From the NCBI GenBank assembly GCA_026397915.1, contig JAPLTX010000061.1, forward strand, positions 94,731 to 158,730: a stretch of DNA of 64,000 nt. The letters run 5' to 3'. The translations under genes and the position numbers were made by a program. This document shows positions 13,442-51,093 of this stretch, in pieces. A model generated the notes under the pieces. The model was not told where the DNA came from, did no database searches, and saw only the letters and a program-made list of their open reading frames with translations. Numbering within the stretch: the first letter of the stretch is position 1; each line of letters opens with the position of its first letter. The stretch comes from Verrucomicrobiota bacterium. Its GTDB lineage: Bacteria; Verrucomicrobiota; Verrucomicrobiia; CAIQCK01.

Positions 13442-15052
13442 ATGAAAAGCATAGCTGCGCGTTTTCTCCTGCCTTTCAGCGCCGTCGCTGTCATTTTCTC
13501 GACGCTCGTTTTCTACGAAATATACGCAACGAGCCAGCGTATCGCTGACGATTTCGTTCGCCACCAAGCGAACATGGTCATGGAATTCAACCAGGCCATC
13601 CGAGAATATGCGACCGAGACGGCCCAGCCGGCCATGCAGAACATTGCGGCCAAGGACGAGTGCATTTCCGAAGTGATGTCCTCTTCGCTCATTGCACGAA
13701 GCGTCTTCAAGACAATCCAAAAGAAGTTTCCCGGCTATATCGTTCGCTTCGCCTCCGACAAGCCGCGCAATCCAGCCAACCAAGCCACGCCGGAAGAACT
13801 GCGGATCATGGATTTCTTTCGCCAAAACCCGCAAATCATCCAGCAGAGCGAACAGATTCAGATCAACGGCCAGCGTTATGTGGCACAGTTCAAGGTTCTG
13901 CGGACGACGGCGGAATGCCTGCGTTGCCACGGCGATCCGAAGGAAGCGCCGGCGGCAATGGTGAAGCGATATGGCGCAACGGCAGGCTTCCACCGGCAGG
14001 CTGGCGATGTAGCGGGACTCGATACGGTCGCGATTCCCGTGGAGGCGGTTGCTGTCGCAATGGCTGCGGAGATGCGCTGGAAACTGCTGGTTCTGGCCAT
14101 GTGGATCGCCTTCCTGTTCGGGATGGTTGGCTTGGTGTTCCATTGCATGGTGTCACGGCGCCTGGCAGCGATGGCGCGGCACATCCGGGAGCTTGCCACC
14201 AAATCGGAAGTCTCACGGATAACGCCGGAGGGATTGAGAGAGAATGACGAGATTGACGTGCTGGGCATCGCTTTCGACAAGCTTTTTGAACAATTGCGGG
14301 CCATGCAAGCCTCTCTCGAACAACGCGTCGTCGAGCGCACCGCCGAACTGGCGCGGGCCAACGACGGGTTGAAACAAGAAATTGCGGAGCGCCAGCGCGC
14401 GGAGGAGGCAGTGCGAGAAAGCGAGCACCGCCTGCAAGCCACCATCAATCGCGCACCGTTTGGCGCGTATTTCTTCGAGTTACAATCGGACGGACGGTTG
14501 GTGCTCACGGGAGGAAATCCCGCCGCGGAAAAAGTTACGCGGGCGATGAATCAGCAATTTTTCAACAAGGCGATCGAAGACGCCTTTCCAAGCCTGAAGG
14601 GAACAGAGATTCCCGATGCGTTCCGACGTGTTGCGGCCAACGGTGATGACTATCAAAACGATCAGGTCGAATGGAACGATCAGGGCATTCGAGGCGTGTT
14701 TGAGTTTCACGCCTTCCAGACCGGCGTCAACCGAATGGCTGTCTTTTTCCAGGACGTCACCGAGCGCAAGCGGGGTGAAGACGCGATCCGGGCTTCCCTC
14801 CAAGAGAAAACGGTCCTCCTGAAAGAGGTGCACCACCGCGTGAAGAACAACCTCCAGACCGTGACCAGTCTGTTGAACCTCCAGGCGGTCCGCACCAAGA
14901 ATCAAACCGCGCTCGACACCTTGCAGGAAACCGGCAACCGAGTCCGCTCGATGGCGCTGCTGCATGAAACGCTTTACCGTTCGGAGACGTTGGGGCGCGT
15001 GAACTTCGGCAACTACATCGAGAACATCTGCGGCCACCTTTTCCGTTCCTAT
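13442..15052 (+). pseudogene. sensor histidine kinase, 5' portion (DUF3365 heme CXXCH sensor-HAMP-PAS-HisKA_2), interrupted by prophage insertion after ...ICGHLFRSY
   Basis: ORF 13442..15085 ends [10 protein letters not shown] read from prophage end; no HATPase domain; matching HATPase fragment at 50724..51093; paralog 51107..52552 gives colinear template HLFRSHAQKAARIKLE. Confidence 0.75.
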
Positions 15053-15079
15053 CGTAACTACCCGAATAGTTTGAAACGG
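15053..15079 (+). repeat. left terminal inverted repeat of prophage (CGTAACTACCCGAATAGTTTGAAACGG)
   Basis: reverse complement matches right end CGGCACTAACCAGAATGTTTGAAACGG with ~20/27 identity; core CCGTTTCAAAC resembles Mu end-site consensus YGTTTCAYT. Confidence 0.7.
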
Positions 15080-15138
15080 GGGTAAATAGGCGGCGTAACG
15101 CGGGACGCGGAAAGGGTAAAAAGCTAGAATCGGCGGGG

Positions 15139-16629
15139 CTATGGCGTAACGGCCGCCGGACGGCCGCCAGACGGCCGCGGAGGGGCCGCCAAGGGGGCGA
15201 AGACCAGCGTGTCGGCCTCGTGAGCCAGGATTCGGATGTGGCCGCGCAGCAGGTCAGTGTAGGCAGTGCGGCGGGCGTCGTGGAGAATGATGACGCCGCC
15301 GGGGGCCAGCACTTGGATGGCCGCCAGCGCGCACTCGACGCGGCGGCGACCGTCTATGAAAATCAACTGTGGTGCCGGGCGGATGTCCAATGCGCGGTGC
15401 GCATAACGGGAGACGCGGCGGTTGACCGGCTCCAGAAGGGTATCCCATCGGGCCGCGCAAGGCGGCACAGAGGCGCGGGCGCGTTGAAGCCAGGTGTCGT
15501 CGTGCTCAATGCTGGTGAGCCGTGCGCCGGACGGGAGGCGGCCGAGGATGACACGACTGGAAGCGCCTGGCCCCCACTCCAACACGGAGGTGGGCTTGAT
15601 GCGGTCGAGCCATTGCTCAAGGACGGGGACGAAGCTGTGCATGGAGTTGGTCGGCACATTGGAGATTGGAGATTTGAGATTTGAAACCGGAGACAACGGG
15701 AAATGTGTCTTGAGCGCGAGTGTCTCCAGCATTGCCAGCAGCGCGTCGTCGGCAACGCGCTTGGACGCGCGCTCGAACAACTCGTGATCAAGGCGGGCCT
15801 CGGCTGTGAGCGCGCGGTCCGCGATGGCGTCGGCGGGGCCGCAACCGCATCGGTGAAGCCAGGGGATGATCCGCTCGCGAAACGCTGTCTCGCCGCAGAC
15901 CGCGTAGTAGGCGTGCCAGACGTTCATCCAGGCGGGGACAATGTTGTTGAAGCGGTATTGGCCGCCGTCCGAGTTGCGGGAAGGGTGCGTGGTGCCGAAG
16001 AACTCGTGGCCGAGCATCACGTCGTCAAGGCTCACCACGGGCACGCCGGACATGAAGGCTCGCAGGGCCATGCCGCGCTCTTGCGAGCCGTGACGGCCGG
16101 CGAATGTATTCCACCCACCGACGCGCGCGTAGGTGTCGCGCGACATGCAGAGGCCGACGCCGACCATCAGCGGGGACGGTTCCGGCGCGCGCCGGTATTG
16201 GGAAGTGCTGAAGGGGAGTATCGCCTCGTTGTTCGGATGAAAGACGCGCTGGCTGCCGGGCAGCCGGTAGGCGCGCCAGTTGGCGTCGTAGGCGATGTTG
16301 GCGAGCGCGGGGCAGACGATGGCTCCGCTCTCGACGGCGCGGCCCGCCAGCGCACGGATGTCGCCGGCCAGCACGGTTTGGTGGGCGTCAACCCAGAGCA
16401 GCGCGTCGCCCGTGGCGGCGGCCGTCGCGGCGAGTTTGGCCTTGCCACATCCGAGAGGCTTGTCGTGTTTGACGACGCGAACGCCGTCCGGCAGCGCATC
16501 GCAGGAACCGTCCGTTGTTCCGTCGGCGCACACGATGACTTCATCCGCGCCGGCGGCAAGGAAGTCGCGGCACGTCGCCGTGACGCGGCCCCCCTCGTTG
16601 AATGTGTTGATGATCACAGAGAGTTTCAT
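15139..16629 (-). CDS. bifunctional family-2 glycosyltransferase / class I SAM-dependent O-methyltransferase (family 3-like) fusion
   Basis: N-term KLSVIINTFNEG...CADGTTDGS...WVDAH GT2 motifs; C-term VLEWGPGASSRV...LIFIDG methyltransferase motifs; last gene before prophage left end. Confidence 0.7.
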   Translation of the reverse strand: MKLSVIINTFNEGGRVTATCRDFLAAGADEVIVCADGTTDGSCDALPDGVRVVKHDKPLGCGKAKLAATAAATGDALLWVDAHQTVLAGDIRALAGRAVESGAIVCPALANIAYDANWRAYRLPGSQRVFHPNNEAILPFSTSQYRRAPEPSPLMVGVGLCMSRDTYARVGGWNTFAGRHGSQERGMALRAFMSGVPVVSLDDVMLGHEFFGTTHPSRNSDGGQYRFNNIVPAWMNVWHAYYAVCGETAFRERIIPWLHRCGCGPADAIADRALTAEARLDHELFERASKRVADDALLAMLETLALKTHFPLSPVSNLKSPISNVPTNSMHSFVPVLEQWLDRIKPTSVLEWGPGASSRVILGRLPSGARLTSIEHDDTWLQRARASVPPCAARWDTLLEPVNRRVSRYAHRALDIRPAPQLIFIDGRRRVECALAAIQVLAPGGVIILHDARRTAYTDLLRGHIRILAHEADTLVFAPLAAPPRPSGGRPAAVTP

Positions 16630-30702: not shown

Positions 30703-31149
30703 TTATGGAGTGGCGGCGTCGGCCTGATCCAGCTTGCTGGTCTTGATGCGAAAGTTCAGTTCCCTCGCGACCGCCACGGCGCGGACGATGTAGTCGGGCA
30801 CGTTGGCCGCGTGCAGCGCGCCGAGCATCGTCGCCAGTTCGTTCTCCACGTGCGGCAGGTTGGAACACGCCTCTTCGCGCTTCATGCCGTCGCCAGCGAG
30901 GTAGCGGAGCAGATACTTTTGCAGCGCGTGCTCGTAGATGTCCAAGTCCGCGTGCCGAGCCAGCGGCAGCGCGCCAACCGGGGACGGCGCTTTCATCACA
31001 TCCGTGTGCGGCGGCCTCACGGGCGGCCCTTCCGGCCCGTCGGTGATGGCTTGCAGCGCGGCGGACATTTTATTTCTAAAACCTTCACCCCGACACAGCT
31101 GACAGTTGGCGTCGTTGCAGTATGTTTGATGATCGGAAATCAGTCTCAC
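30703..31149 (-). CDS. hypothetical Cys-containing phage protein (GTG start overlapping rSAM stop)
   Basis: 148 aa; CNDANCQLC motif; GTGA overlap with upstream stop. Confidence 0.3.
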   Translation of the reverse strand: MRLISDHQTYCNDANCQLCRGEGFRNKMSAALQAITDGPEGPPVRPPHTDVMKAPSPVGALPLARHADLDIYEHALQKYLLRYLAGDGMKREEACSNLPHVENELATMLGALHAANVPDYIVRAVAVARELNFRIKTSKLDQADAATP

Positions 31150-31877
31150 GGCTCCACCTCGTTCTTGATCAGCCGGCCAAGGTTCTTCTTCTGGCGGATT
31201 TCAATGCCCGCGCATTGTAACAACCGAATCAGTCGGAGAACGTCATGCTCGTCTGGTTCCACGAGGCCGTGTCCCTTGGAGTCTGCACCAATGTTGACGA
31301 ATGTCGGACGGGCGGCCTCAATCCAGTCAGCCAACTCCACCGGGTTGAAGTCGAGGACCGGCTCTATAGTGATGAACGTCGGCATCGTCGGCCAGTAGGA
31401 CCGAATCCGCTTAAAGTGCGAGATGCGGTTGCGCGGGGCTGGTGCGTCGCCCATGACTTGATGCCACCGATTACTTTCAATCGTGACGCCTACAATGAAG
31501 TTTCCGGGACGGAAGAATCGGTTGTCCGCGAACACGTCGAACAATCGCTCAGGATTCTTCGTCTGAAAAACGAACCTGTTTTCCTTCCACTCGAAGCAGT
31601 GCTGGAGGATAAGGCGAATCCAAGACTCGGGAACGTCGGCAGCAAACAGGTCGCTGCAATGCTCGATGAAGATCGTCTTGCCGGTGCCGTAGTTGACCGC
31701 CAGTTCCTTTTTCTCCAACCGCAGCGGGCCTTTATAGTGACCCGTGCGGTAGCCGGGGCCAGACTTCACGTAGCAGTAGCCGCAACGGTGCGGGCATTCT
31801 CCGCGCAGGTGCGTGTGGGTGTGCGTCACCCAGCCTTGATACATGTTGGAACCGTCTTGGACCTTGGTTAGTGGCAT
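31146..31877 (-). CDS. radical SAM-like enzyme (CxxxCxYC; phage Gp37/Gp68 DUF5131-like)
   Basis: GECPHRCGYCYV cluster-binding motif with aromatic residue before third Cys; 243 aa. Confidence 0.6.
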   Translation of the reverse strand: MPLTKVQDGSNMYQGWVTHTHTHLRGECPHRCGYCYVKSGPGYRTGHYKGPLRLEKKELAVNYGTGKTIFIEHCSDLFAADVPESWIRLILQHCFEWKENRFVFQTKNPERLFDVFADNRFFRPGNFIVGVTIESNRWHQVMGDAPAPRNRISHFKRIRSYWPTMPTFITIEPVLDFNPVELADWIEAARPTFVNIGADSKGHGLVEPDEHDVLRLIRLLQCAGIEIRQKKNLGRLIKNEVEP

Positions 31878-36552: not shown

Positions 36553-36771
36553 CTACGCAGCCTCCTGTGTTTTGAGAAAGCGAGCGCCGTCCTGTCGAAG
36601 ATTCGAGTGCGAACGAAACCCGCAACTCGCCGTGTCCCACATCGCTGACACGAATCGGAGTCCACGCTTGAAGAACCGGCGCTGTCTGGCGTTGCCGCGA
36701 ATGTGGCACCCGTCCGAATGTCCAACGTCGTTGAATGGCAATGAAGTGTTTGCGGTGATGGTCTGTCTCAT
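36553..36771 (-). CDS. small hypothetical early protein
   Basis: 72 aa; ATG overlaps MuB-like stop (ATGA). Confidence 0.25.
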   Translation of the reverse strand: MRQTITANTSLPFNDVGHSDGCHIRGNARQRRFFKRGLRFVSAMWDTASCGFRSHSNLRQDGARFLKTQEAA

Positions 36772-37871
36772 CGTGTTGCCTCCGATTTGGCGGTGATCTC
36801 GCGGGCGATGTCGTCGAGCGTTGCGCCCTTCCTCAGCGAGATGGCGAGCGGCTTGATCTTCACGGCCTCGCGCACGAGGATGTTGACGAACTGTCGGAGG
36901 TCAATGGCCTCGTCTCCGTGGTCGTGCGCCACGCGGCGGCAGACGCGGTTGACGAACTTGAAGTAGCCGTGCGAGAGCGCAAACGGCTCGATGGCGGCGA
37001 CGGCCTTCTCCAGCACGCCCTTCCCGAACGCGATCCGGTCCTTGAACATCAACTCCACGTCGCCCTGTTCGATGACGCTGAGGTCAATGCGCTCGTGCAT
37101 CCGATTGTGCGTGAGTTGCTGCGCCTCGAAGTAGCCCTTCGACACCTCCAGCCGCTGCATGAGCGTGTTCTGCGCCGAAACAATGAACTCGCCCGGTGTC
37201 TGATTCACCAGCGTCTTGACGAGGTTCAACATGCGCGGTGTCAGGTGATGGGCCTCGTCAATGCCGATGCAGAGGCGCTTCTTGTTCAGGTGCTCGACGA
37301 GCTTGCGCATCCGCTGGGTCGTGGAGACGGGCATCTCGAACTGGACGTTCTTGTCCGGCTCCTTGGGCTTGAAGCCGAGCGCGCCGAGAATCCGCCCCAG
37401 CATCTCGTGATCGGTCCACGTCTCGTCGGCCTCGGTGAACGTGACGCGCACCGGATACTTCATCTCCAGGGACTGGCGGGCCTTGGTCTTGCCGCTGCCG
37501 CTCGGCCCCTGCATCCAGATCAGCCGCGTGTTGTCCTGTTCGCGCATGATCTCCAAGAACGCCACCCGCAGCCGCATGCACGGCGTGAGATCGTGGTTGA
37601 TCGGCTCTTCGTCGGGGGCCGACTTCTCCAGGTTGTCCATCGTGCTGGCGACGGTGCGATAGCGCAGCACCCAGCTTTCGAGGTCGCCCGCCGAGTATTC
37701 CCCGGCGAGGATGGCGTTGAAGGTCTTGGCGCTGCCGAGGTCGGCGAACTCGCGCGCGAGCTTGTCGCGCGTCCATCCTTTGTCGAGTTGGTAACGCTCG
37801 GCGCGCTGGGCGAGCGCGCGCAACTCCGCGCGCACCGGGTCGATCTGCGGGTCATTGTGGGTCGTATTCAT
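36768..37871 (-). CDS. MuB-like AAA+ ATPase, transposition target DNA activator
   Basis: 367 aa; N-terminal HTH then Walker A MQGPSGSGKTKA; immediately downstream of transposase as in Mu A-B. Confidence 0.7.
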   Translation of the reverse strand: MNTTHNDPQIDPVRAELRALAQRAERYQLDKGWTRDKLAREFADLGSAKTFNAILAGEYSAGDLESWVLRYRTVASTMDNLEKSAPDEEPINHDLTPCMRLRVAFLEIMREQDNTRLIWMQGPSGSGKTKARQSLEMKYPVRVTFTEADETWTDHEMLGRILGALGFKPKEPDKNVQFEMPVSTTQRMRKLVEHLNKKRLCIGIDEAHHLTPRMLNLVKTLVNQTPGEFIVSAQNTLMQRLEVSKGYFEAQQLTHNRMHERIDLSVIEQGDVELMFKDRIAFGKGVLEKAVAAIEPFALSHGYFKFVNRVCRRVAHDHGDEAIDLRQFVNILVREAVKIKPLAISLRKGATLDDIAREITAKSEATR

Positions 37872-37888: not shown

Positions 37889-39880
37889 TCAGGTTTCGAT
37901 CAGGTCACCGCGGGCGCGGGCTTCGGCCTCGCGTTTGGCGATGTAATCGGCCGCGGCAGTGCGGTCGAAAGAGACGCGGGAAACGGCCGGGGCCGTTCCT
38001 CGCGTTGAAAATGTGGCCGGCTCGGTATCGGTGTCTCTCGCGTTTGCGGCGGACTCGCCGAGCCGGCTCACCGTGTCGTGGTGTGTAAGTGGAGATTGGA
38101 GTTTGGAGATGGCGACGCGGCTGACGTTGCCCCGGCCGTCGCTGTCGAGGTGGACAACGGCGGCGCGTCCGGTGCTCTCGATGGCCGCGAAGCTCGAGCG
38201 CACCTGGGCGGTGCGGAGCTTGCGCGCGGCGGTGGCCGGCGAACGGTAACCCTCGCAATCAACGAACTGCGGCCCGTCGGCACTCCAGGGAGCGATGCCG
38301 ATGAACTGGAACCGCTTCCAGTTCTCGCGATTCATCGGGCGCGTTTCGTTATTGAAGAGCGCACAGCCGGCCTCCGGCGCGAGCGGGTCGAACCGCGCGA
38401 TGACGCGGTGGCCGCGCTCGATGAACGGAAAAGCCGCCGTCGCCACGTGGAACCGAAACGGGCGCGCATAAGGCGCAACGGAAACCTGCACATGGCCCGC
38501 GAGTTTGGTGCCGACGCCGACCTCGCTGATGGTCGGCTTGAAAAACCAGAACTCCTCCTCGCTCACCGCCGGCAGCGATCCGCCGCGCGCGGCCATGTCG
38601 CGCTCCCACGTCACGTCGGGAGCTTCCGCTTTGAGGCCGTCAACCTTGCGCGCCCGCTTGTTCAGGAACTGGCAGCCGGCGACAAGCTTTTGGATCAGCA
38701 CCTCGCCCCACGGAATGAAGCCGCACTTGGCCGGATCGGCCTTGCCCTTGTTCACGGCCATCATGTCATCGGTAGGCTGCTCGTATTCGCCGCGCGTCTT
38801 GCCGATGCGCACGCCATGCACGCCCATGATCTTGTGGAACGGCCGAAACGAGGACTCGATGCCGCCCTTGGCGTTGGAGGAGAAAACGTGGTCCACGGGG
38901 ATGACGCTGGCGATGCCGCCCCAGCGGTTGCCGGCGTCGTCAATCTGAATACCGTCGAGCGCGTTGTTTTCCCAGCGACCGCGTTCGTCGCGGAAACGGC
39001 CAAACCGCCCCCAGCGCCGCGTGAGAAGTTCCTTGAACCGCGCGATGTCCTCGGCGCGGTAGCTGTCCGCAAAGCGCGCGATGGGATAGACGCCGAGCCA
39101 CTTGCCGCTGCGCACGTCGCGCGCCATCAGGATTTGACGCCCCACGCGCCAGTAGCCGTCCGGGTCCATCCAGAAAAACGGAACGTCGGTTGACACGTCG
39201 TCAAACTCGATGATGTCCCCGCTGTTCACAGGCACCCATGCGCCGTGGTCGTCGTAACCGTAAAAGCCGCGGCGCACGCTGAAGACGATGCTCCGCAGCG
39301 CGTCGCGGCTGCGCGCCGCTGCCATTTCCTCCTGCGTCACGCGCACGTCGCGCATGATGCTTTGCGGGTATCGGCCCGTCAGCCGGTTCGCGGCGAGGGC
39401 CTCGCGGACCTCCGGCCGGCACACCGGCGAGTCGGCCATCAACTCGATGCCCATTGGCACGCTCTCGGTCTTTAGGACAAACGTGCGGGCGAGCTTCTTC
39501 TCTGCGTCGTTGAGGTTCACTTTTTTCTTTCGCCCGCAGTTCTTGTATTGCCGGCCGAGCTTTTCCTCGCCGCCGGCATCGAGCAGCCGCGCGTAGCGCA
39601 ACAGCGTGCAGTGCGGCTTGCCGAGTATCCGAGCCGCCTCCGCCGCGCTCGACGCCATCGGCGGCTGGCCGTTCTCTCCGGGCTTTTGCAGCGCGCGCCA
39701 CTCGCGCACGAGCGACGCGCGGCGTTGCTTCCAGGCGTTGTCCAAGGACTGCGGAGTCGGAACCGCCGCCGCGGCGTCGCTGGAAACAATCGCGCCCGGA
39801 GGTCGCGATCCACCTGTAGCGGCGGTCTCTGACCGCCGATCCGGCGCGGGCGAGGAGTTCGCCCCCGCGCAGTGTTGCAT
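37889..39880 (-). CDS. Mu-type DDE transposase (MuA-like)
   Basis: ORF 37889..40132; central rve/DDE core (SGDIIEFDDV..., ...VIPVDHVF...), N-terminal HTH; start uncertain (39880 or 39658); ~590-664 aa. Confidence 0.75.
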   Translation of the reverse strand: MQHCAGANSSPAPDRRSETAATGGSRPPGAIVSSDAAAAVPTPQSLDNAWKQRRASLVREWRALQKPGENGQPPMASSAAEAARILGKPHCTLLRYARLLDAGGEEKLGRQYKNCGRKKKVNLNDAEKKLARTFVLKTESVPMGIELMADSPVCRPEVREALAANRLTGRYPQSIMRDVRVTQEEMAAARSRDALRSIVFSVRRGFYGYDDHGAWVPVNSGDIIEFDDVSTDVPFFWMDPDGYWRVGRQILMARDVRSGKWLGVYPIARFADSYRAEDIARFKELLTRRWGRFGRFRDERGRWENNALDGIQIDDAGNRWGGIASVIPVDHVFSSNAKGGIESSFRPFHKIMGVHGVRIGKTRGEYEQPTDDMMAVNKGKADPAKCGFIPWGEVLIQKLVAGCQFLNKRARKVDGLKAEAPDVTWERDMAARGGSLPAVSEEEFWFFKPTISEVGVGTKLAGHVQVSVAPYARPFRFHVATAAFPFIERGHRVIARFDPLAPEAGCALFNNETRPMNRENWKRFQFIGIAPWSADGPQFVDCEGYRSPATAARKLRTAQVRSSFAAIESTGRAAVVHLDSDGRGNVSRVAISKLQSPLTHHDTVSRLGESAANARDTDTEPATFSTRGTAPAVSRVSFDRTAAADYIAKREAEARARGDLIET

Positions 39881-40150
39881 GAAGCCAATAACCGAGGCCG
39901 GCAGACGATCTCCATCTGCGCCATGCTGCGCGCTGCCGAATCGGCGGTCAGAGACTGCCGCTGCAGAAAGCTGAGAGCTGAAAGTTGAAAGCTGAGGACT
40001 GCGATCTCCCGCCGCAACGTCGGGGCGCGTTGCGGCGGGCGGGGGTTGGTTCTGGCCTGTGAACGGCGCGGGCACAATCGCCCCGGTCAACTCCGCGCCG
40101 CTCCGCGTCTTGTTGGTTATAGAATCGTGCATGGCCAGATGGCGGGAACG

Positions 40151-42575: not shown

Positions 42576-42681
42576 TTTGGTGTTGCCTTTCGCGGCTTCC
42601 GGCGGGACTCTCAGCGAAGTTGTAACAGGTCGTGCCATTTGACGGGCACCCTTTTAAGCAAATTTGCTGGCGCTGTCAACA

Positions 42682-43125
42682 ATGAATAGCAATTTTGTTA
42701 AAGATTTTTCTGACCGTCTGTCGGGGTTGATGGCCGAGCGGGGATTCACGCAACAACAACTCGCCGACAAGATCACGTCCTCGCAGACGAGCGTGTCGCA
42801 CTGGCTTCGAGGAAATGTCCCTTCCAGGCGAGCACTCAAGACACTCGCGGACTGTTTCAGTGTGAACATCGAATGGCTGCGATCCGGCCAAGGTTCGCGC
42901 GTGCCAGCGTCTGTTGTTCGCGAGACCGTAGAGGTCGCATTGGGTGGAGAAATAAAAGACCATAAGCTCATGCTCGAAACGTTGATCGGTGGAATGCAGA
43001 CGCCGCAGCTTCAGGACTTGGTGATAGAGCAAACGCGGCTCGGAAATGTGGGTTTAGTGTTGTTGCTTGGAACAGAGTTGAGTAAACGTAGGGACGTGAA
43101 GCGCAGAACGGAGACAAGGAAATGA
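42682..43125 (+). CDS. XRE-family (Cro/CI-type HTH) transcriptional regulator, candidate prophage repressor
   Basis: RGFTQQQLADKITSSQTSVSHWLRGNVPSRRALKTLADCFSVNIEWL; divergent from ner-like early operon. Confidence 0.6.
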   Translation: MNSNFVKDFSDRLSGLMAERGFTQQQLADKITSSQTSVSHWLRGNVPSRRALKTLADCFSVNIEWLRSGQGSRVPASVVRETVEVALGGEIKDHKLMLETLIGGMQTPQLQDLVIEQTRLGNVGLVLLLGTELSKRRDVKRRTETRK

Positions 43126-43601
43126 GACTGGCACTGATTCTGATGGTGGCGCTGGCGGGTGCGACGGCGCGCGGAGCGGAAAACCAAATTCTCTACGCGA
43201 ACAAGGCGGAGTGCATCAAATGGATTGGCCGGTCCAACGTCGAGGTTGATTTCAAGGCGTCGTTTTGCAGCGCCGTGCAGGCCAAATACCATGTTGGCTT
43301 AATGCAAGTGGACGCCTTCTACGTGGACGGTCGAATCCAGCATGTTCGATATTCCGGCGCGAGCCGTCCGGTGGCGGAGGCGATTGTCCGCCAAAACACC
43401 GCGGGCCAAGAGTGGAAGCCGGGCGGAAATGGGAAAGCCGTCGAATGGAAACGCTCGGATGGAGCCAGCGCATGGTGGGCACCGAACACGCTCGTGCTCC
43501 AAACCAAAGAGTGGCCGGGCATCCTGAAGAGAATAGCCGACGAGCGGCCGGGGGCGCGAGGGCGCGGCAGGGCAAGCGCCCAAAACGGCAAGGAGAACTA
43601 A
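43122..43601 (+). CDS. secreted hypothetical protein (signal peptide)
   Basis: MRLALILMVALAGATARGAE; paralogous N-terminus to next gene. Confidence 0.4.
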   Translation: MRLALILMVALAGATARGAENQILYANKAECIKWIGRSNVEVDFKASFCSAVQAKYHVGLMQVDAFYVDGRIQHVRYSGASRPVAEAIVRQNTAGQEWKPGGNGKAVEWKRSDGASAWWAPNTLVLQTKEWPGILKRIADERPGARGRGRASAQNGKEN

Positions 43602-43605
43602 GACA

Positions 43606-44250
43606 ATGAGACTGGCACCAATTCTAATCCTGTCGGCTGCGGTTTTGGCGGAAGCGGGCGCGCAGACGATTTATCACGATTCAATCTCGCGGCTTACGGG
43701 CAGAGTTGGCGGGATGGGCGGCGGTGACATCTCGTTCACCAGCGCGAATGGACGGGCTGGCGTGCCGGAGGAAATGCGGACTGGCGGCAAGGTTTATCCC
43801 AACGTGCGGTTTGGCCCTGCCAAGGGCGAGCAGGTGTTTGTCTCGTGGAACGGCGGCTCCGGCTGGATGCACGCGATGTTTTTGCCGGAGGAAGTTCAAC
43901 GGCGGTTTGGGTTCAACACGGCACAACTCCGTGAGGCGCGCGAAGCTGCGGAACTGGAGTCCGCGCGCGTCGCCGAGATCAAACGCCAGGAACGCATTGA
44001 GAAATACGGGGAGACGTTCAACGGGAAAGTGCAGCAAGTCATCAAAGACGGCCTGCTGGTTTCGATTGGAGAATCTTACGGCGTCGGCGATTCGCTGTTG
44101 TTAACCGGGCATCCGAAAGAGGCCACGATGATCGAAGACATTCGCATCCGCTTTCTCGCCAAACCGGCCGGGCGCTATCAGTTTGTCAGTGTGACCGGCG
44201 CGACGCGCACGATCAGCAAGTGGTCTTACATCGGCGAGCCGCACGACTGA
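43606..44250 (+). CDS. secreted hypothetical protein (signal peptide, coiled coil)
   Basis: MRLAPILILSAAVLAEAGAQ signal peptide. Confidence 0.4.
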   Translation: MRLAPILILSAAVLAEAGAQTIYHDSISRLTGRVGGMGGGDISFTSANGRAGVPEEMRTGGKVYPNVRFGPAKGEQVFVSWNGGSGWMHAMFLPEEVQRRFGFNTAQLREAREAAELESARVAEIKRQERIEKYGETFNGKVQQVIKDGLLVSIGESYGVGDSLLLTGHPKEATMIEDIRIRFLAKPAGRYQFVSVTGATRTISKWSYIGEPHD

Positions 44251-44334
44251 CGCGCGGCACCCTTTTGGTGAAACGATGGCCACGATGGCCACGCTGCTTG
44301 GCGGTCGGCGCGCGGGGGCGCGTAGGCTGGCCGC

Positions 44335-44769
44335 ATGTTTACGGCAGCCATCAGCTCTCAGCTCTCAGCTCTCAGCCTTCCACTCCTTACCGCCGCGCCG
44401 ATCACACTCGATAACTCCACCGTCGTCACCGTCGGCATGATCGTGGCCGTGGCGGCGATGGTGAAGTGGGCGACGGACATCTGGGCCAACATCCGGCCCA
44501 ACCGCTCCTTTGACGACAAGCTGGTGGCGGCGCTGACGGCGTGCCAGGGGCAGTGCTCTAAAAATCTCAAGGTGGCCACCGACGACATCGAGGTGATCCA
44601 GGCCGACCGCCGTCGCAACACGACGGACCTCTGGAAGGAAATCAACGGCCTGAAGGAAACGATCCAGACGTTCTCGAACGACTTGAACCGCGCGCTGGGC
44701 CGGCTGGAGGGGCGGGCGGAAATGCTCGACGCGGTGCGCGACGTGATCGCGAAGAAAACGAAAGACTAA
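44335..44769 (+). CDS. membrane protein, holin-like candidate
   Basis: 144 aa with TM segment VVTVGMIVAVAAMVKW; upstream late-promoter-like motif. Confidence 0.3.
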   Translation: MFTAAISSQLSALSLPLLTAAPITLDNSTVVTVGMIVAVAAMVKWATDIWANIRPNRSFDDKLVAALTACQGQCSKNLKVATDDIEVIQADRRRNTTDLWKEINGLKETIQTFSNDLNRALGRLEGRAEMLDAVRDVIAKKTKD

Positions 44770-44806
44770 CCCCCAACGGCGCGCCCAGCGGTCGCGCCCT
44801 ACCTAC

Positions 44807-45085
44807 ATGACACCCGATCCCATTTTTGTCCGCGCCGCCGAATGCCGGCGGGCGGTGCGCGATTACCTGGCCAAGCGCCTTCGCCTGGCGTTCGAGCTGT
44901 CGGCTGTCCGCTCGGCGGTAAACCGAACCGGCGGCGACTGGAGCGACGAGGAAGTAAACAGCGCGCTCGTGTATCTGGCGGGCCTGACGCCGCCGCACGT
45001 GAAGACGGTTCGCGACAAGCTTGGCCCCACGCTCTACTACCAGGCGACCACCGGGGGCGTGCAAGCAATGGAAAACGGGGATTAA
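44807..45085 (+). CDS. hypothetical phage protein
   Basis: 92 aa ORF. Confidence 0.2.
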   Translation: MTPDPIFVRAAECRRAVRDYLAKRLRLAFELSAVRSAVNRTGGDWSDEEVNSALVYLAGLTPPHVKTVRDKLGPTLYYQATTGGVQAMENGD

Positions 45086-45092
45086 CCAGACG

Positions 45093-46058
45093 ATGAAACC
45101 GATTCGTTACAAGCTCGGCAAGGTGGCTATCCCGCAGTCGGCGCTGCTCAGGATCGGCGCGGCCATCGTGTGGCGCAACGCGGCCATCGTGGGCTTCCTT
45201 TTTTCGCTGCTCGTCATCGCGCTGCTGCTGACCGGCTGCGCTAATTCCGCACTCCGCACTCCGCACTCCGCAATTCCGCCGATGCCGCCGAAGCCAACGA
45301 CGGCGGCGACGGCCGGCGCGATTGAGAGCGCCACTGCGAACGCCAGCGAGGCGCAGACCAGCGTCCGGGCCGGGCGCGACCTGGCCAAACAAGACGAGGG
45401 CTTGAAGGCGGTGCCGCATCTGGACAAGGCGGACGCTCAACTCGACACGACGCGCGCCGATCTGGCGGCAGCGAAGGCGCACGCGACGGAACTGGAGGGG
45501 AAGATTGCGGCGGATCGGGCGGCGCACGATATGCAGGCGACCGCCTACCAATCCCAGATTGGAAATTTGAAATCTGAGATGGCCGCCGGGGCGGCGGCGA
45601 ACAAGAAGCTGGCGAAGGAAAACACCGACCTAAAGAACGAAGTGCTGCGCAAGGCGCAACTCGTGATCGGCGGCGCTGGCTCGTTCCTGCTGCTCGTGGC
45701 CGCCGGCTGTTTTGCTGCGTGGATCTGGCTCGGCTTCGGCGCGGGCTGGAAGGTGGCGCTGGTGTCGGCCACGGTCGGCGCGGCGGCCCTCGCGCTGGCG
45801 ATGATGCTCAAGGCCATCGTTGTCTCGACGATTGTGGCGCTGGCGGCGTGCGCCGTGGCGGCGCTCGGCTACGCGGCGTGGCACCTGTGGCGGGACAGCC
45901 GCGATACGCTGGCCAGCGTCGTGGAGGGCGTGGAAACCGCAAAGGCCGGACTCGACCCGGAGGCGGTATCGAAGCTCCACACCATGCTGCGGTTCAAGAC
46001 GAGCGATGCCGACAAGAAGCTGATCGAGCTACTCAAATCGAAGCTCAAGCTGTCATGA
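45093..46058 (+). CDS. membrane lipoprotein with coiled coil and C-terminal TM segments (spanin-like lysis accessory candidate)
   Basis: lipobox LLTGC after hydrophobic stretch, long coiled coil, multiple C-terminal TMs. Confidence 0.3.
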   Translation: MKPIRYKLGKVAIPQSALLRIGAAIVWRNAAIVGFLFSLLVIALLLTGCANSALRTPHSAIPPMPPKPTTAATAGAIESATANASEAQTSVRAGRDLAKQDEGLKAVPHLDKADAQLDTTRADLAAAKAHATELEGKIAADRAAHDMQATAYQSQIGNLKSEMAAGAAANKKLAKENTDLKNEVLRKAQLVIGGAGSFLLLVAAGCFAAWIWLGFGAGWKVALVSATVGAAALALAMMLKAIVVSTIVALAACAVAALGYAAWHLWRDSRDTLASVVEGVETAKAGLDPEAVSKLHTMLRFKTSDADKKLIELLKSKLKLS

Positions 46059-46270
46059 GCGCGACCCGACATTTACCGGCGCGGCGGGCGCTCCGCCGAC
46101 TGGCGGCGGCGTCGGCGCAGATGCTCGGCGGGGACGTGGCCGTGTGCCTGACAGTGGCCGGGCCGAAGGGCGCGCGCGTGGAGCGTTACCTGTGCAGCGC
46201 GGTGGACGCGATGGCGCTGGCGACGATGCTGCAACTGGCGGTGGCGCGGGCCGCGAAGGCTGAGAGCTGA
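46055..46270 (+). CDS. small hypothetical protein
   Basis: 71 aa; ATGA overlap with upstream stop. Confidence 0.2.
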   Translation: MSATRHLPARRALRRLAAASAQMLGGDVAVCLTVAGPKGARVERYLCSAVDAMALATMLQLAVARAAKAES

Positions 46271-46296
46271 AAGCTGAAAGCTGAAAGCTGAAAGCT
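46257..46296. repeat. tandem heptamer array (AGCTGAA)n upstream of terS
   Basis: gctgagagctgaaagctgaaagctgaaagctgaaagct. Confidence 0.8.
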
Positions 46297-46302
46297 AAAA
46301 CA

Positions 46303-47013
46303 ATGAGCGACACAACCTACAAGGGCAAGATCGGCCGGCTGCCGCGCGCGATGCGCGACGAGGTGTGCCGCCGGATGCGGGACGGCGATAGCGACAGGAG
46401 GATTCTCGTCTGGCTGAACGCCGACGCCGAGGCGAAGAAGCGGATGGAGACCTACTTCGACGGCCAGCCGCTGAACGGAAGCAACATGAGCGAGTGGCGC
46501 GCGGCCGGCTACCAGGACTGGAAGCGGCAGCAGGACCGCGACGCGCAAACCGAGAAGCTTTGCAAGTGGGCGATGAATGCCGTGGACGGCAAGCCCGGCG
46601 ACAAGGCGAGCGCCATCGCGGCGGGCCAGTTGTGCTCCGCGCTGGAGGATTTTGATGTCGAGAAGTTGAAGGATTTGCTGGCGACCGATCCGAGCAATCA
46701 TTCGGAGATTATCAAGAGCCTGGCAAGGCTGCGCACGAGCGACGCGTCGGTGAAGAACGCGGAGGTGAACGCGGTAAAGTTGCAGCAGGCCGAGGAAGCG
46801 CTCCGCCAGGCCAACGAGCGGCTCGTGATGGAGAGGGGGGAGTTTGAAATCCGTTACTGCCAGGGAGTCCTGAAGGGAATCGCGGACGCCGAGGCGCATC
46901 GCATCGCGGGGCTGAACATCTCCAACGACGAGAAGATTGCGTTGATGCGCAAGCACTACTTCGCGGACGTGGACGCGCTCCAAAAATCCGGCGCGGTGAA
47001 GCTGCCGGATTAA
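46303..47013 (+). CDS. putative terminase small subunit (Mu gp27/DUF3486-like)
   Basis: 236 aa; basic N-terminal DNA-binding-like region GRLPRAMRDEVCRRMRDG; directly upstream of terL. Confidence 0.45.
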   Translation: MSDTTYKGKIGRLPRAMRDEVCRRMRDGDSDRRILVWLNADAEAKKRMETYFDGQPLNGSNMSEWRAAGYQDWKRQQDRDAQTEKLCKWAMNAVDGKPGDKASAIAAGQLCSALEDFDVEKLKDLLATDPSNHSEIIKSLARLRTSDASVKNAEVNAVKLQQAEEALRQANERLVMERGEFEIRYCQGVLKGIADAEAHRIAGLNISNDEKIALMRKHYFADVDALQKSGAVKLPD

Positions 47014-47018
47014 CCCCG

Positions 47019-48713
47019 ATGAAGGCCAAGAAACAGCGCCGGCTCTATGAGAACGTGGCGATGGTGATGGTGCGCGAGCGCCGCCACTGCGCGCTGCTCT
47101 GGACCCGGCGCGGTCGCAAAAGCACAACGCTCGGCTCCATCGCCTTCGACGAAATGGCGGCGGCCGACGACCGGACGGTGATCCAAGCCAGCGCGTCGTT
47201 GCTGCTCGGCAAAGAGGGCGTCGGCGCGGCGCTGTCGGCCCTCGAACAGGCCATGATCGTCAAGGCCGAGGCCGAGGCGGTGCGCGACGTGTTCTCGTCG
47301 GGCGCGGAGGATCGCGACCTGAACTTCCAGGTGGCGGCTCGGCCCAAAGACGGCCAGCCCGGCGACTCCAAGGTCATGAAGGGGTTGACGGAAGACGATT
47401 TTGCCGGCCTCTACCGGGCGAGCCGCCTGGAACTTCGCCTCTACTTTGACCGTTCGCGCTACTCTCGGCTGCTGATCATCGCGCCGAATCCGGCGACGGC
47501 GCGCTCGTGGCGCGGGACGGTGTTGCGCGACGAGGTCGGCTACACGCCGCCCGCGCTGGAAACCGATTTGCAGGTCGCGATGGACCCGATGATGCGGGAC
47601 ACGCCGGACCTGAAGCTCGTCTATGGCTCCAACCTGCCGGGCGACAGCCGGCACCCGTGGTTCGCGATGACGCTGCCGCGGGAAATCAAGGCGGCAAACG
47701 AGGAAGATGAGTTCCCGGCGAACGCGTCCGGTCATCTCTTTGTTAGCCAGACCGGACTTCTTGTGCATCGCGTGGCGCTCAAAGACGCTTATCAGGCCGG
47801 CCACCAACTCTTCGACGACAAGGGCCTGCCGATGTCGTATGAGGACTGCGCGAAGTCGCCGCAGTTCCGCGTGGGCTGGGACATCTCCTACGCGCTCAAC
47901 CACAAGACGGGCGGCGCGGGCGCGGTGGACCTGATTGCGCTGGTGAACGCGCAGCGCGCGGGCGTCGGCGAGTGTGCTTTTGTTTACGTGGAGAATGAAG
48001 GCGACTGGCAGCGCGCGCTGTCATTGCTCCGCGGCCACCTGACCAACGGCAGGGTGAACCTCGGCTTGGACGTGGCCAGCACGGCGGAAGAGAAGAGCAA
48101 CCCGTCGAGCATCACGGTGACGGAAGAAACGTCGGGCATGTATTACCAGCGGCTCGTCGCCGTCTTCAAAACGAAACACCGGGCGGTCGTGAGCCAGCGG
48201 TTGAAGGATGTCTGCGCGGTGGTCGCCGGCCGTAGCGACGGCGGGCGGGTTCAGAAGTTGAGCATTGACGCCGGCAACGAGCGAATGGCCGCCGAGGAAA
48301 CCGCGAACGATTTGCGCGGCGTCGTTACCGTCGAGCTTGTCATTCCATCGGCAAGCATCCATCCGCCAGGCTACAGCGACTCGGTAAATTTCAAGACCTA
48401 TCAGAGCGACCTCTACAGCGACGGACTCAACAACGGCCTGATTGCGGTTCCGCCGGACGAATACATCAAGCTCGACCATTTGCTTCCGATCAAGGACATG
48501 GGCCGTTACACGTGCGCCGTGGACAGTGAGGGCAGGCACGGTGATTCGTTCGATTCCGGCAAGCAGTCCTACTACGGTTTTTATTCCAGCGGCGGCGCAG
48601 TTGAGGCCCACGCCGTCCGCGTCGGCGGGAATGTTTCCACGGCCCACACCGGCAGGAACAATCCGCTCGCGCCGCACTTCGACAAGGCAGGAGGTTCAAG
48701 ACTATGGATTTGA
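47019..48713 (+). CDS. terminase large subunit (Mu gp28-like)
   Basis: 564 aa; deviant Walker A WTRRGRKSTTLG; size/order terS-terL-portal. Confidence 0.55.
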   Translation: MKAKKQRRLYENVAMVMVRERRHCALLWTRRGRKSTTLGSIAFDEMAAADDRTVIQASASLLLGKEGVGAALSALEQAMIVKAEAEAVRDVFSSGAEDRDLNFQVAARPKDGQPGDSKVMKGLTEDDFAGLYRASRLELRLYFDRSRYSRLLIIAPNPATARSWRGTVLRDEVGYTPPALETDLQVAMDPMMRDTPDLKLVYGSNLPGDSRHPWFAMTLPREIKAANEEDEFPANASGHLFVSQTGLLVHRVALKDAYQAGHQLFDDKGLPMSYEDCAKSPQFRVGWDISYALNHKTGGAGAVDLIALVNAQRAGVGECAFVYVENEGDWQRALSLLRGHLTNGRVNLGLDVASTAEEKSNPSSITVTEETSGMYYQRLVAVFKTKHRAVVSQRLKDVCAVVAGRSDGGRVQKLSIDAGNERMAAEETANDLRGVVTVELVIPSASIHPPGYSDSVNFKTYQSDLYSDGLNNGLIAVPPDEYIKLDHLLPIKDMGRYTCAVDSEGRHGDSFDSGKQSYYGFYSSGGAVEAHAVRVGGNVSTAHTGRNNPLAPHFDKAGGSRLWI

Positions 48714-50341
48714 AAACATTTTTCAACGCGGACGCGGCGACCATCGTGAAGGCGATGGTTCCCGACGAAATGAAGCAGCGGCTCACGAAGTTCTTCGTGT
48801 CGCTGATTCCGCAAACGATCATCACGCGGTGGGACTCGCGCAAGCAGCCGGCAGCTGCCGCGCCGACGGTGGACGCGGACCAGTTGGCGACGATCATCCG
48901 CAACGCCGAGGCCGGCAACACCGACACGCTGTTCGCGCTCTACCGCGACCTGCTGTTCGACAGCCACATCCTGGGCGAATACCAGAAGCGGCTCGCGGCG
49001 ATGCTCGGCGACCAGATCAACGTCGGCCCTGAAGACGAGGAAAAGGAGGAAGATATTGACCTCGCGTGGCGCTGCCAGATGATGCTGAAGCGGAGCCGTG
49101 ACTGGTTTGACGCGATGCGCCACCTGCTGTCGTCGTGCTTCTGGCCGGTGGCCGTGGTGGAAAAGGTCTGGCGGCCGTCCACCGATCCGGCCTTGAAGTT
49201 TGAACTATGGCGGCTCGTCCCGGTGCCACATCACTTGCTCGATTTCACGACAGGCAAGCTGCGGATCGCGGACGTGGACGACAACGGCAACAAGACGGGG
49301 ACGTTTCACGACGCCGACCCGATGCGCTACATCGTCTGCCGCGTTCACATCATGCCCACCGACGACCACTGGGGCGGGCCGGGCCGGGCGGTGCTTTTCT
49401 GGTGGCTGCTGAAAACGCAAACGGTCGGCTGGTGGGCGCGCTTCCTCGAAAAATACCAGCCGGTGTATGTCGGCAAGTTCAACAGCGGCGACGAGCGCAG
49501 CCGGCTCGTGCTGGAAACGGCGCTGGCCGAGGCCGTCAAGCTCGGCGGCATCGTCATCAACAAGGAAACCGAGTTCTCCATCGAGCAGGCGCTCGCCCAG
49601 GGCAACCTCGACGGTTTCGAGAAGTTCTACAGCCTCTGCACGCGCGAGATCAGCAAGGTGTTGACCGGTCACGCGATGAGCCAGGAGTCGCCCGCGAGCG
49701 GACTGAACAGCGGCGAGGCCGGCGCAAAAGAACAGGTCCGCCAGGACATCCGTCAACTCGACAACATCCGGCTTGGAGCGGTGGTGGCACAGCAGTTGTT
49801 TGACGACTTCCGCCGATACAACAATCTGCCCGGCGGGCTGCCGGAAGTGTGGTGGGGCAGCGAGAGCTACACTGAAGCGAAGTCCACGGCTGAGGTGCTC
49901 CAGGCGACGAATCAGGCCGGGCTTGAGCCGACCGACGAGGCGATTCCGGTATTGTCGAAGCGGCTGGGGTTCAGTCTCCGCCGAAAGGCGGCCGCCGCCC
50001 CGCCGGCATTCGGCGCGCCGCTGGCCGCGCTGGCCGCGACGGGCACAGCGCCCATCGGCGGCACCGATCCGGCCGCCGAAGCGAATGCGGCGTTGATGGC
50101 CAAGGCCGCGCCCGGACTGGCCGCGGCATTTCGCGGATCACACGCGCCCATCCGGCTGGCGATTTTGGCGAGCACGTCGCCGGCAGACTTGGAGCAGCGG
50201 ATGCGGATGCTCTATCCAGACTGGAGCGAGAAGAAACTTCAACCGATGCTGGCCGACGCGACGGAGGCGTTCAACACGCTGGTGGCCAACGCGGCGGCCG
50301 GCGCTGTGAGGACGGCAGCGAGGCCAGGCGCGAGGCGATAA
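48704..50341 (+). CDS. portal protein (Mu gp29/DUF935-like)
   Basis: 545 aa following terL, overlapping by 10 nt; size consistent with Mu-like portal. Confidence 0.5.
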   Translation: MDLKTFFNADAATIVKAMVPDEMKQRLTKFFVSLIPQTIITRWDSRKQPAAAAPTVDADQLATIIRNAEAGNTDTLFALYRDLLFDSHILGEYQKRLAAMLGDQINVGPEDEEKEEDIDLAWRCQMMLKRSRDWFDAMRHLLSSCFWPVAVVEKVWRPSTDPALKFELWRLVPVPHHLLDFTTGKLRIADVDDNGNKTGTFHDADPMRYIVCRVHIMPTDDHWGGPGRAVLFWWLLKTQTVGWWARFLEKYQPVYVGKFNSGDERSRLVLETALAEAVKLGGIVINKETEFSIEQALAQGNLDGFEKFYSLCTREISKVLTGHAMSQESPASGLNSGEAGAKEQVRQDIRQLDNIRLGAVVAQQLFDDFRRYNNLPGGLPEVWWGSESYTEAKSTAEVLQATNQAGLEPTDEAIPVLSKRLGFSLRRKAAAAPPAFGAPLAALAATGTAPIGGTDPAAEANAALMAKAAPGLAAAFRGSHAPIRLAILASTSPADLEQRMRMLYPDWSEKKLQPMLADATEAFNTLVANAAAGAVRTAARPGARR

Positions 50342-50696
50342 ATCCCCCGCGCAATTCCGGCGTGTCGGCCCGGCCGTGTAGCCACGAAAGATAATCGTCT
50401 GAGTGAATCTTCAGTTTGATCAGCTTCAACCCCGCCCGCTTCGTGCGGCCGATGGGTGTCCAAACGACCCGACTGGCGTTGGAATGGCAACGCGTCCGCT
50501 AAGACCACGCGCTGGCCTCCTACGAAGGACGGTTCGCCACGTCGTAACCCTTTTGACGCGCGTCACTCCTTGAAGCCGCTCGACCCTTTTCAAACCCCCG
50601 TTTCAATCATTCCTGTCCGCCGCCGGCCGCCTCACACACCGTGTAACGCAACCCACACAAAAGTAGGCGGTTAAGACCATTTCAAACTAAATCAGA

Positions 50697-50723
50697 CCGT
50701 TTCAAACATTCTGGTTAGTGCCG
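50697..50723 (+). repeat. right terminal inverted repeat of prophage; second subterminal copy CCATTTCAAACT at 50677..50688
   Basis: CCGTTTCAAACATTCTGGTTAGTGCCG; tandem upstream near-copy 9 nt away, like multiple transposase binding sites (R1/R2). Confidence 0.7.
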
Positions 50724-51093
50724 CTATGGACCCAAGGCGGCTCACATTAAGCTGGAAACTCATCTGGAGGAAGTCTCCGTTGATTTGGACCAGGCGGTAT
50801 CGTGCGGCCTCATCATCAACGAACTGGTTTCCAACGCGCTCAAACACGCCTTCCCCGACGGACGATCGGGGCGGATCGCGGTCGAATTGAAGATGGCACC
50901 GGAAAAGCAAATCGTTTTGAATGTTGCCGATGACGGAGTAGGCATCCCGCCGGGAGCAGACATCCATCAAACCGGAACACTGGGTCACCAACTGGTGTTC
51001 ATGCTCGCCGAGAAACTGCACGGCACCGTTGAAGTGATACGGGAGCACGGAACCACCTTCCGCATCGTGTTTCCATCGAGACTCAGTTGAGAG
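50724..51093 (+). pseudogene. 3' fragment of interrupted sensor histidine kinase (HATPase_c domain)
   Basis: ...PKAAHIKLETHLEEVSVDLDQAVSCGLIINELVSNALKHAF...GTTFRIVFPSRLS colinear with C-terminus of paralog 51107..52552; in-frame stop upstream inside prophage end. Confidence 0.8.

Follow-up and report, generated by a model that had tools for sequence, protein, structure and literature searches.

Inverted terminal repeats and CG termini of a probable transposable prophage in a Verrucomicrobiota genome

The stretch analysed here (64,000 nucleotides of Verrucomicrobiota bacterium assembly GCA_026397915.1, contig JAPLTX010000061.1, positions 94,731 to 158,730 of the forward strand; hereafter the window) contains a single insertion of 35,671 bp at 15053-50723, both ends of which were set by its junctions with a split host gene. 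This insertion is very probably a complete transposable (Mu-style) prophage that was integrated into a kinase gene by DDE transposition and whose ends are imperfect 27-nt inverted repeats carrying transposase sites. The reading is preferred because the split kinase can be restored, the terminal repeats are inverted, a core motif is clustered at the ends, the gene content fits, no integrase was found among the open reading frames (ORFs) scanned, and the terminus at position +16 from the core is conserved in relatives. An earlier note, made from the letters alone, had proposed the ends of a Mu-style prophage, which is borne out by the split kinase, the duplication at the junctions and the gene content. 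Most notable are the A/G variability of the terminal nucleotide in what may be a large unrecognised phage clade, the apparent 4-bp target-site duplication, and a putative transposase that is detectable by its predicted fold only.

Boundaries and insertion site

The host gene split by the element encodes a histidine kinase of the HisKA_2 type, and the flanks are its two halves. The 5' part (13442-15052, plus strand) contains Tll0287-like, PAS and HisKA_2 domains according to Pfam, with HisKA_2 being complete (profile positions 1-76 of 76) and stopping exactly at the junction. The 3' part (50724-51090, plus strand) carries HATPase_c, as seen from a precomputed HATPase_c match and from the alignment of the joined protein. 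The sequence CTAT is found in identical form at both junctions (15049-15052 and 50724-50727, no strand assigned). In an empty-site test, the flanks joined over one CTAT copy gave an in-frame HisKA_2/HATPase kinase, which aligned without a break across the junction with the solved kinase EL346 (4r39, 4r3a) and with only a two-residue loop gap. Because the bases next to the two CTAT copies differ, the duplication measures exactly 4 bp; an extension to 5 bp in either direction would bring in a mismatch and leave the termini asymmetric. From this single case we infer a 4-bp stagger in general. Direct reading of the sequence found neither TG nor CA within reach of either junction, and the termini are therefore 5'-CG...CG-3', as the earlier note had stated. 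The identical phage-kinase junction was present in two further assemblies of related samples (three assemblies in all).

A second, intact hybrid kinase (receiver, PAS, HisKA_2, HATPase) is located directly downstream of the interrupted one (51107-52552, plus strand); with an intact kinase beside a split one, the insertion of the prophage may have inactivated one of two paired signalling genes.

It is extremely improbable that the ends are attL and attR of an integrase-type prophage, or chance repeats. The short sequence duplicated at both junctions could pass as a minimal att core, but no integrase or recombinase was found among the ORFs scanned (Pfam and PHROGs profile searches) and no tRNA or Rfam family in the element, the terminal repeats are inverted and not direct, and both a MuB-like ATPase and a transposase of predicted DDE fold are encoded. 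The host genes adjoining the relatives are unrelated to one another, which leaves no shared att site. The att site of an integrase phage, a tRNA-linked site and a structured RNA were rejected on the integrase, tRNA and Rfam results, and a chance repeat on the probability of the inverted repeat (P=2e-6).

Terminal repeats and core motif

The reverse complement of the right end CCGTTTCAAACATTCTGGTTAGTGCCG (50697-50723) is identical to the left end CGTAACTACCCGAATAGTTTGAAACGG (15053-15079) at 20 of 27 positions, in agreement with the earlier note. Random 27-mer pairs of the window gave a mean of 7.1 matches and reached 20 or more with the P value given above; the positions compared were fixed beforehand by the junctions and not picked by search, and the match holds under the empty-site comparison with the exact boundaries 15053 and 50723. 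Read outward, each repeat consists of the core CCGTTTCAAAC and a 16-nt spacer. In the far terminal inverted repeat, which is on the tail-fibre side (minus strand), the spacer is TATTCGGGTAGTTACG and the terminus reads ...GTTACG-3' (CGTAAC on the plus strand). In the near, portal-side repeat (plus strand), this outermost core is followed by the spacer ATTCTGGTTAGTGCCG and the terminus reads ...GCCG-3'.

The core motif ACC-N-TTTCAAAC occurs in five copies at the portal-side end and in about two at the other end. The additional copies are internal and have the same orientation, four of them lying within 180 nt on the portal side and one, a clear half-site, at the tail-fibre end. An extended consensus, (T/A)ACCC-N-TTTCAAAC, fits the five near-end copies at about -24, -44, -123, -136 and -177 from the terminus and two far-end copies at -24 and -65. 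Over the 64-kb window, core matches with up to two mismatches were at chance level (18 observed, 18.7 expected); among those with at most one mismatch, five of six were located at the two ends.

At the near end (plus strand), the second site from the right terminus is the direct repeat CCATTTCAAAC (50677-50687), which in relatives reads CA(G/A)ATCAA(A/G)CC at the same position; the earlier note had described it as a near-copy inside the right end. Further inside are two adjacent sites, GACCCTTTTCAAAC and CCGTTTCAATC(ATTCC), with copies at 50585 and 50598 (50582-50608), which belong to the direct-repeat family with at most one mismatch; in relatives an equivalent inner site is found just past the portal stop codon. 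The innermost site, GTAACCCTTTTGACG (50544-50558), is degenerate and has (T/A)ACCCTTT in common with the other sites and with CGTTACCCTTTCGACG of the relative U9502 (IMG/VR 3300009502_002963). The copies at 50585 and 50598 and the degenerate one at 50544-50558 had been missed in the earlier note. At the far end (minus strand), GGGTAA (outward TTACCC, 15080-15085) is a direct repeat directly upstream of the outermost core and part of an extended site TTACCC-N-GTTTCAAAC. The inner far-end site GAAAGGGTAA (outward TTACCCTTTC, 15110-15119) is a 10-mer that is identical at -67/-68 in the window and in U9502, and it corresponds to the left part of the near-end sites (A)ACCCTTTTCAAAC.

In the window (50668-50707) as well as in most relatives, the outermost core is preceded by two more CC(A)N(A/T)TC units at a spacing of about 10 nt (CAGATCAAACC-AGATCNNNCC-GTTTCAAAC), so that the helix would present three short, related units on the same side.

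Each end thus consists of a 16-nt spacer next to the presumed cleavage position, with a conserved ...GGT(C/G)TC(A/G) at its end in the lineage, and of the strongly conserved core ACC-N-TTTCAAAC-ATT. In the mechanism considered most likely, the core copies would be binding sites for the helix-turn-helix (HTH) domains of a MuA/TnsB-fold transposase, and the outermost site would position the catalytic domain at the end nucleotide, at a distance of 16 nt, for cleavage at CG. The unequal arrays of sites would build an asymmetric transpososome, as in Mu and Tn7, and the MuB-like ATPase would then deliver the target DNA.

The portal-side TTTCAAAC repeats could alternatively be mainly packaging (pac) or regulatory signals for the terminase-portal operon, with only the outermost copy serving transposition. 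Such a role would fit the strong asymmetry between five copies next to terminase and portal and about two at the other end, and also the one inner copy that lies immediately past the portal stop codon in many relatives; moreover, packaging of Mu starts from a pac site inside one end. It is nevertheless distinctly improbable as the main function: the inner copies have the sequence and the orientation of the outermost copy, which itself belongs to the inverted repeat, the far end, away from the packaging genes, also keeps an inner half-site whose left half (ACCCTTT) is the same, and Mu and Tn7 as a rule have several sites per end in unequal numbers. Packaging and transposition roles are, in addition, not mutually exclusive.

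CGTAAC is found at 15053, 15094 and 15145, so that three of the eight plus-strand copies of the window are inside 100 nt (Poisson 3e-7); a fourth copy is at 50543. The earlier note, which had the first two positions right and the third off by one (15146), suggested that the three motifs may be additional binding sites. The terminal copy is conserved terminal sequence, reading TGTAAC in U9502, but the two inner copies are not kept there, TTACCC-type elements being kept instead, and the suggestion is not supported for them. The inner copies are contained in an exact 9-mer direct repeat, GGCGTAACG, with a spacing of 51 nt (15092-15100 and 15143-15151, plus strand), the second copy of which overlaps the stop region of a GT2/methyltransferase ORF. 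This repeat has no counterpart at the matching distance in the U9502 far end (the only related far end available); it is window-specific and non-random. An 11-nt tandem repeat, ACGGCCGCC(G/A)G, is present in three to four copies at 15149-15191, in the 3' end of the same glycosyltransferase-methyltransferase ORF.

The earlier note had also classified the core as a MuA-type recognition core. The ends of Mu were read from its GenBank record, and the Mu site consensus used was the 22-bp YGTTTCAYTNNAARYRCGAAAR. The core matches YGTTTCAYT at 7 of 9 positions, as is found in 8% of random 27-mers of this composition (P=0.08), and the best match to the full consensus was 13/20, a score at the 95th percentile for random sequence. 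Each 22-bp site of Mu has its YGTTTCAY half directed inward, beginning 5-6 nt from the terminus, whereas the core in the window is at positions 17-27 from the terminus and matches better when read outward. The comparison with the Mu consensus thus gave no match beyond chance, and the alignment of the transposase family with MuA using hhalign reached a probability of 1.9% without yielding a usable alignment. The MuA label is therefore not supported, and the resemblance to the Mu consensus is no evidence of homology.

Ends of related elements and the terminal nucleotide

Relatives were collected as loci with a portal homologue and a transposase homologue on the same contig and then by portal-alignment scans of metagenome, genome and viral collections. 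These scans yielded about 190 more loci, nearly all of them from Verrucomicrobiota, Kiritimatiellia and Lentisphaerae and including isolates of Geminisphaera, Cerasicoccus and Horticoccus; scans of the genome and viral collections with a single portal protein gave no matches, whereas the alignment-based scans succeeded. A common sequence was found just past the portal gene (CCGTTTCAAACATTCTG... in the window, TGTTCAAACATTCTG... in L001, CCGTTTCAAACATTTCTG... in L002, CCGTTTCAAACATTCC... in L016 and GTTTCAAACATTTCG... in L017), and the transposases of the relatives sharing this core are only 43-68% identical to that of the window. Downstream of the portal, the core is kept in dozens of related loci across the phylum, which bears out the earlier note in treating the core as an element of the ends that is present in more than one copy on the right.

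The 36 non-redundant outermost sites from all portal loci were aligned on the core. In this alignment TTTCAAAC-ATT was near-totally conserved and the spacer more weakly so, with a rise at +10 to +16 (GGT, C/G, T, C, A/G). Information content was at background from +17 onwards, and the junction of the window, which was set independently by the kinase gene, is exactly at +16. A purine occupied +16 in 28 of the 36 ends, while +17 had background composition. Regarding individual loci, L221 and L222 were 92% identical up to ...ATTTCCTACGCTCTCA and unrelated past it (a break at +16), and L145, L162 and L089 share ATTCCTCT(A/G)GGTGTCG, after which they diverge completely.

The most frequent dinucleotides at +15/+16 were CA (11 ends), CG (6, window included) and TG (4), followed by smaller classes, some of which resemble one-nucleotide register shifts. 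G and A were equally frequent at +16 (14 each), corresponding to a terminal G in about 40% of the elements. Found in several independent insertions, CG termini are a recurrent, integration-competent variant of the lineage and not damage peculiar to the copy in the window.

The contrary case would be a dead prophage from a lineage that normally has TG...CA, this copy having lost the terminal A at both ends by mutation and being locked in the chromosome. This would agree with the CA at both ends of U9502 (the closest relative with both ends known), with CA being the commonest class (11/36), with the truncated gene beside the right end and with the identical junction in three assemblies, where no alternative flank and thus no sign of movement was seen. 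It appears unlikely, however, as two independent A-to-G changes at exactly both terminal nucleotides of an otherwise intact 35.7-kb element are hardly to be expected, and G is as common as A at +16. Five other non-redundant elements of the 36-end survey also have CG at +16. Four of these five (L145, L162, L089/L166 and L161) are, like the end in the window, outermost-type ends in different hosts and insertion sites. In three of the four the spacer is almost the same and the sequences part directly past the G, from which repeated integration of elements with CG ends follows.

U9502 is the only relative in which both ends were reached. Its far end, ...TCCAAAC followed by TTTCGACCGTGTTACA, has the same geometry as the far end in the window. 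Three elements of the left end of the window recur in the far end of U9502 at matching distances from the terminus, namely the terminal GTTAC(G/A), a TTACCC at about -33 and, at about -67, the identical 10-mer. The termini are CA at both ends of U9502 and CG at both ends in the window, which suggests that the terminal dinucleotides of the two ends co-vary (n=2). The flanks of U9502 (L001 11746-11760, in the upstream region of a cytochrome c gene; L048 17155-17233, midway through a gene with a PAS domain) do not make up a single locus, which points to a rearrangement after insertion or to a chimeric metagenome contig. They gave no readable duplication, since the cytochrome c promoter and the PAS gene are not one split gene.

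Other sources of ends were of little use. L015 (portal 89% identical) does not reach the terminus, a longer ORF following its portal, L004 (the IMG/VR excerpt of a Geminisphaera provirus) breaks off with the stop codon of the portal gene, and two LW23 copies were uninformative as independent evidence, being identical over the whole 21.5 kb. For the far end, a homologue search with the 589-aa tail protein as anchor gave two matches, on contigs that stop short of an end. The far-side cut-outs L236 and L251 contained insertion sequence copies and no recognisable end, a tape-measure alignment scan returned mostly unrelated phages and no new far end, and a scan with a composite far-end pattern found only the known relative and three chance matches in AT-rich coding DNA.

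Transposase, gene content and comparison with known systems

The putative transposase is encoded by a 747-aa ORF (37889-40132, minus strand; the database annotation starts at 39880, codon 85, for 663 aa), the first approximately 150 codons of which are of low complexity. The ORF is positioned where a transposase would be expected, directly before the ATPase gene. It had no match at E <=0.01 in Pfam, PHROGs or NCBIfam (including rve, DDE_2 and Mu-transpos_C), and a sequence search of PDB was empty. The family comprises 23 database proteins, all of them unannotated ('hypothetical'). An AlphaFold model built on this 23-member family (predicted local distance difference test, pLDDT, 72.5) shows helical, HTH-rich N-terminal domains, an RNase-H-type core and a beta-barrel. 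Its best Foldseek matches were the Mu transpososome (4fcy, E 2.6e-12), then TnsB of the CRISPR-associated transposon (CAST) and of Tn7, and then retroviral integrases, with about 510-560 columns of the model aligned with the 4fcy chains. By predicted fold only, the protein would thus be a DDE transposase of the MuA/TnsB type, with a fold apparently at least as close to TnsB as to MuA. Candidate catalytic residues, assigned from motif and secondary structure, are D311/D312 (39202-39197), E383 (codons 380-385 FRDERG, 38995-38978) and E426 (38857-38855). The acidic residues at the signature positions are invariant and the second is Glu (FRFERGxWE in the family versus hTDNGxEF in rve), which suggests a D-E-E triad instead of D-D-E.

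Several points weigh against a transposable prophage with the architecture described. The link to the transposase comes from a predicted structure of moderate confidence, which the sequence comparison with MuA did not support, and the far-end architecture and the pairing of the dinucleotides come from two far ends. About a quarter of the surveyed ends fit a 16-nt spacer poorly (GT, GG and CC classes). A 5-bp duplication with one mutated base, and hence asymmetric termini, is still conceivable, and the portal-side cluster could also, or instead, serve packaging or transcription termination.

A terminal CA is regarded as characteristic of DDE recombinases of the group that includes MuA, TnsB and retroviral integrases. 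According to a survey from 2021, every Mu- and B3-like phage known at that time had conserved TG-CA ends, with the TA-TA ends of Leptospira prophages as the first exception and with duplications of 5 bp in Mu and 6 bp in B3 (PMC8705779). As a tentative and rather bold interpretation, the present element may represent an unrecognised large clade of transposable phages in the PVC superphylum, with a profile-invisible transposase of the MuA/TnsB fold, possibly D-E-E, which takes either A or G as the 3'-terminal, nucleophile-bearing nucleotide, uses the same dinucleotide at both ends (CG/CG here, CA/CA in a relative) and cuts with a 4-bp stagger. If so, the 'invariant CA' of DDE recombinases in the Mu/Tn7/retroviral branch would be a rule of particular lineages, not something that the mechanism demands. 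The A/G variation provides a natural set of transposases with their own ends, in which recognition of the terminal nucleotide by the active site can be studied. No description of this phage group was found in the literature searched. A study on Verrucomicrobia interpreted a region of this kind as a defective prophage without genes for integration (PMC6920513), which is consistent with the transposase family going unrecognised. The end signature ACC-N-TTTCAAAC-ATT, followed by 16 nt to the terminus, offers a simple way to delimit such prophages in genomes of Verrucomicrobiota and Kiritimatiellia and could seed mini-transposon tools for bacteria that are hard to manipulate.

The minus-strand genes, read downwards from about 42.6 to 15.1 kb (15139-42638), start with an early operon made up of a ParB-like gene, the 747-aa ORF, the MuB-like AAA+ ATPase and Gam. 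Next come MuF, a Mu-type protease, the major head protein, a tape-measure protein and Ig-domain tail proteins, with a glycosyltransferase-methyltransferase fusion at the end. In the plus-strand part, which starts at 42.7 kb, a Cro/CI-type repressor candidate precedes unassigned genes, a probable large terminase and a Mu-type portal abutting the right end. The MuB-like transposition ATPase (36768-37871, minus strand) is directly downstream of the transposase and matches Pfam AAA_22 (1.7e-13) and PHROG 296 'DNA transposition protein' (1.5e-21). The portal (gp29 family; 48704-50341, plus strand; Pfam Portal_Mu 4.6e-54) is the last intact gene before the right end. The repressor candidate (42664-43125, plus strand; Pfam HTH_3 7.3e-09) is at the divergent junction between the early operon on the minus strand and the lysis/packaging operon on the plus strand, a position at which relatives have an HTH or HTH+S24 gene.

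As an insertion of 35,671 bp at a non-specific site between short duplications, the element conforms to the transposable (Mu-like, 'Saltoviridae') prophages, whose genomes measure about 36-39 kb. Features shared with Mu are a prophage size of about 36 kb, non-specific insertion sites, terminal inverted repeats, directly oriented site copies that are unequal between the ends, and an inner edge of the first site at about 27 nt from the terminus, as well as a DDE transposase gene (here by predicted fold) followed directly by an AAA+ ATPase gene, Gam, and the Mu-type portal, MuF, protease and head genes. The element differs from Mu in its CG...CG termini (TG...CA in Mu), in a duplication of 4 bp (one clean case) versus 5 bp, in a transposase without detectable sequence similarity to MuA, in a site consensus that is unrelated beyond chance and has its conserved core distal to the terminus, and in a terminase-portal module that is inverted and set against one end. 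Several directly oriented sites in unequal arrays and a partner AAA+ ATPase are also found with Tn7 and CRISPR-associated TnsB ends, but the present element is a tailed phage and not a transposon, and it is without TnsA, TnsD/TniQ and CRISPR components. Ends of the Tn7 type read 5'-TGT...ACA-3' and are flanked by a 5-bp duplication, which differs from the window on both counts.

With the Leptospira TA-TA prophages (PMC8705779) the element shares that a natural transposable lineage has departed from TG-CA and that canonical and non-canonical ends coexist among relatives. Those prophages, however, change the penultimate base (TA) and keep the terminal A, whereas here the terminal base itself varies; they also have a recognisable transposase of the B3/Tn552 family and 6-bp duplications, the window differing in both. 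The Pseudomonas B3/D3112 siphophages resemble the element in having a tape-measure/tail-fibre module with no sheath gene identified, a Cro/CI-type repressor at a divergent junction, and an early transposase and ATPase. They are unlike it in the 6-bp duplications and TG-CA ends of B3 (features taken by description from PMC8705779) and in a transposase recognisable by sequence and a canonical gene order.

The lysis-terminase-portal module (42664-50341, plus strand) is divergent from the early operon and ends against one end of the element, apart from MuF and the head genes. This portal-last layout was found in 151 of 161 related loci; MuF directly follows the portal in only ten of the 161, which have the canonical Mu order terminase-portal-MuF (e.g., L044 and L045). 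Beside the right-end site array, 50341-50510 (minus strand) holds a deletion remnant, the C-terminal part (about 56 codons) of a longer ORF. In L015 this ORF follows the portal in intact form (>=135 aa), and in L048 it adjoins the far end (58% identity). At the opposite end, the last gene before the terminus encodes a GT2 glycosyltransferase fused to a methyltransferase domain (15139-16629, minus strand), where U9502 has a DNA methyltransferase; in Mu, this last-gene position before the far end is occupied by mom. A DUF5131/radical-SAM-like gene (31146-31877, minus strand) is located between the early genes and MuF.

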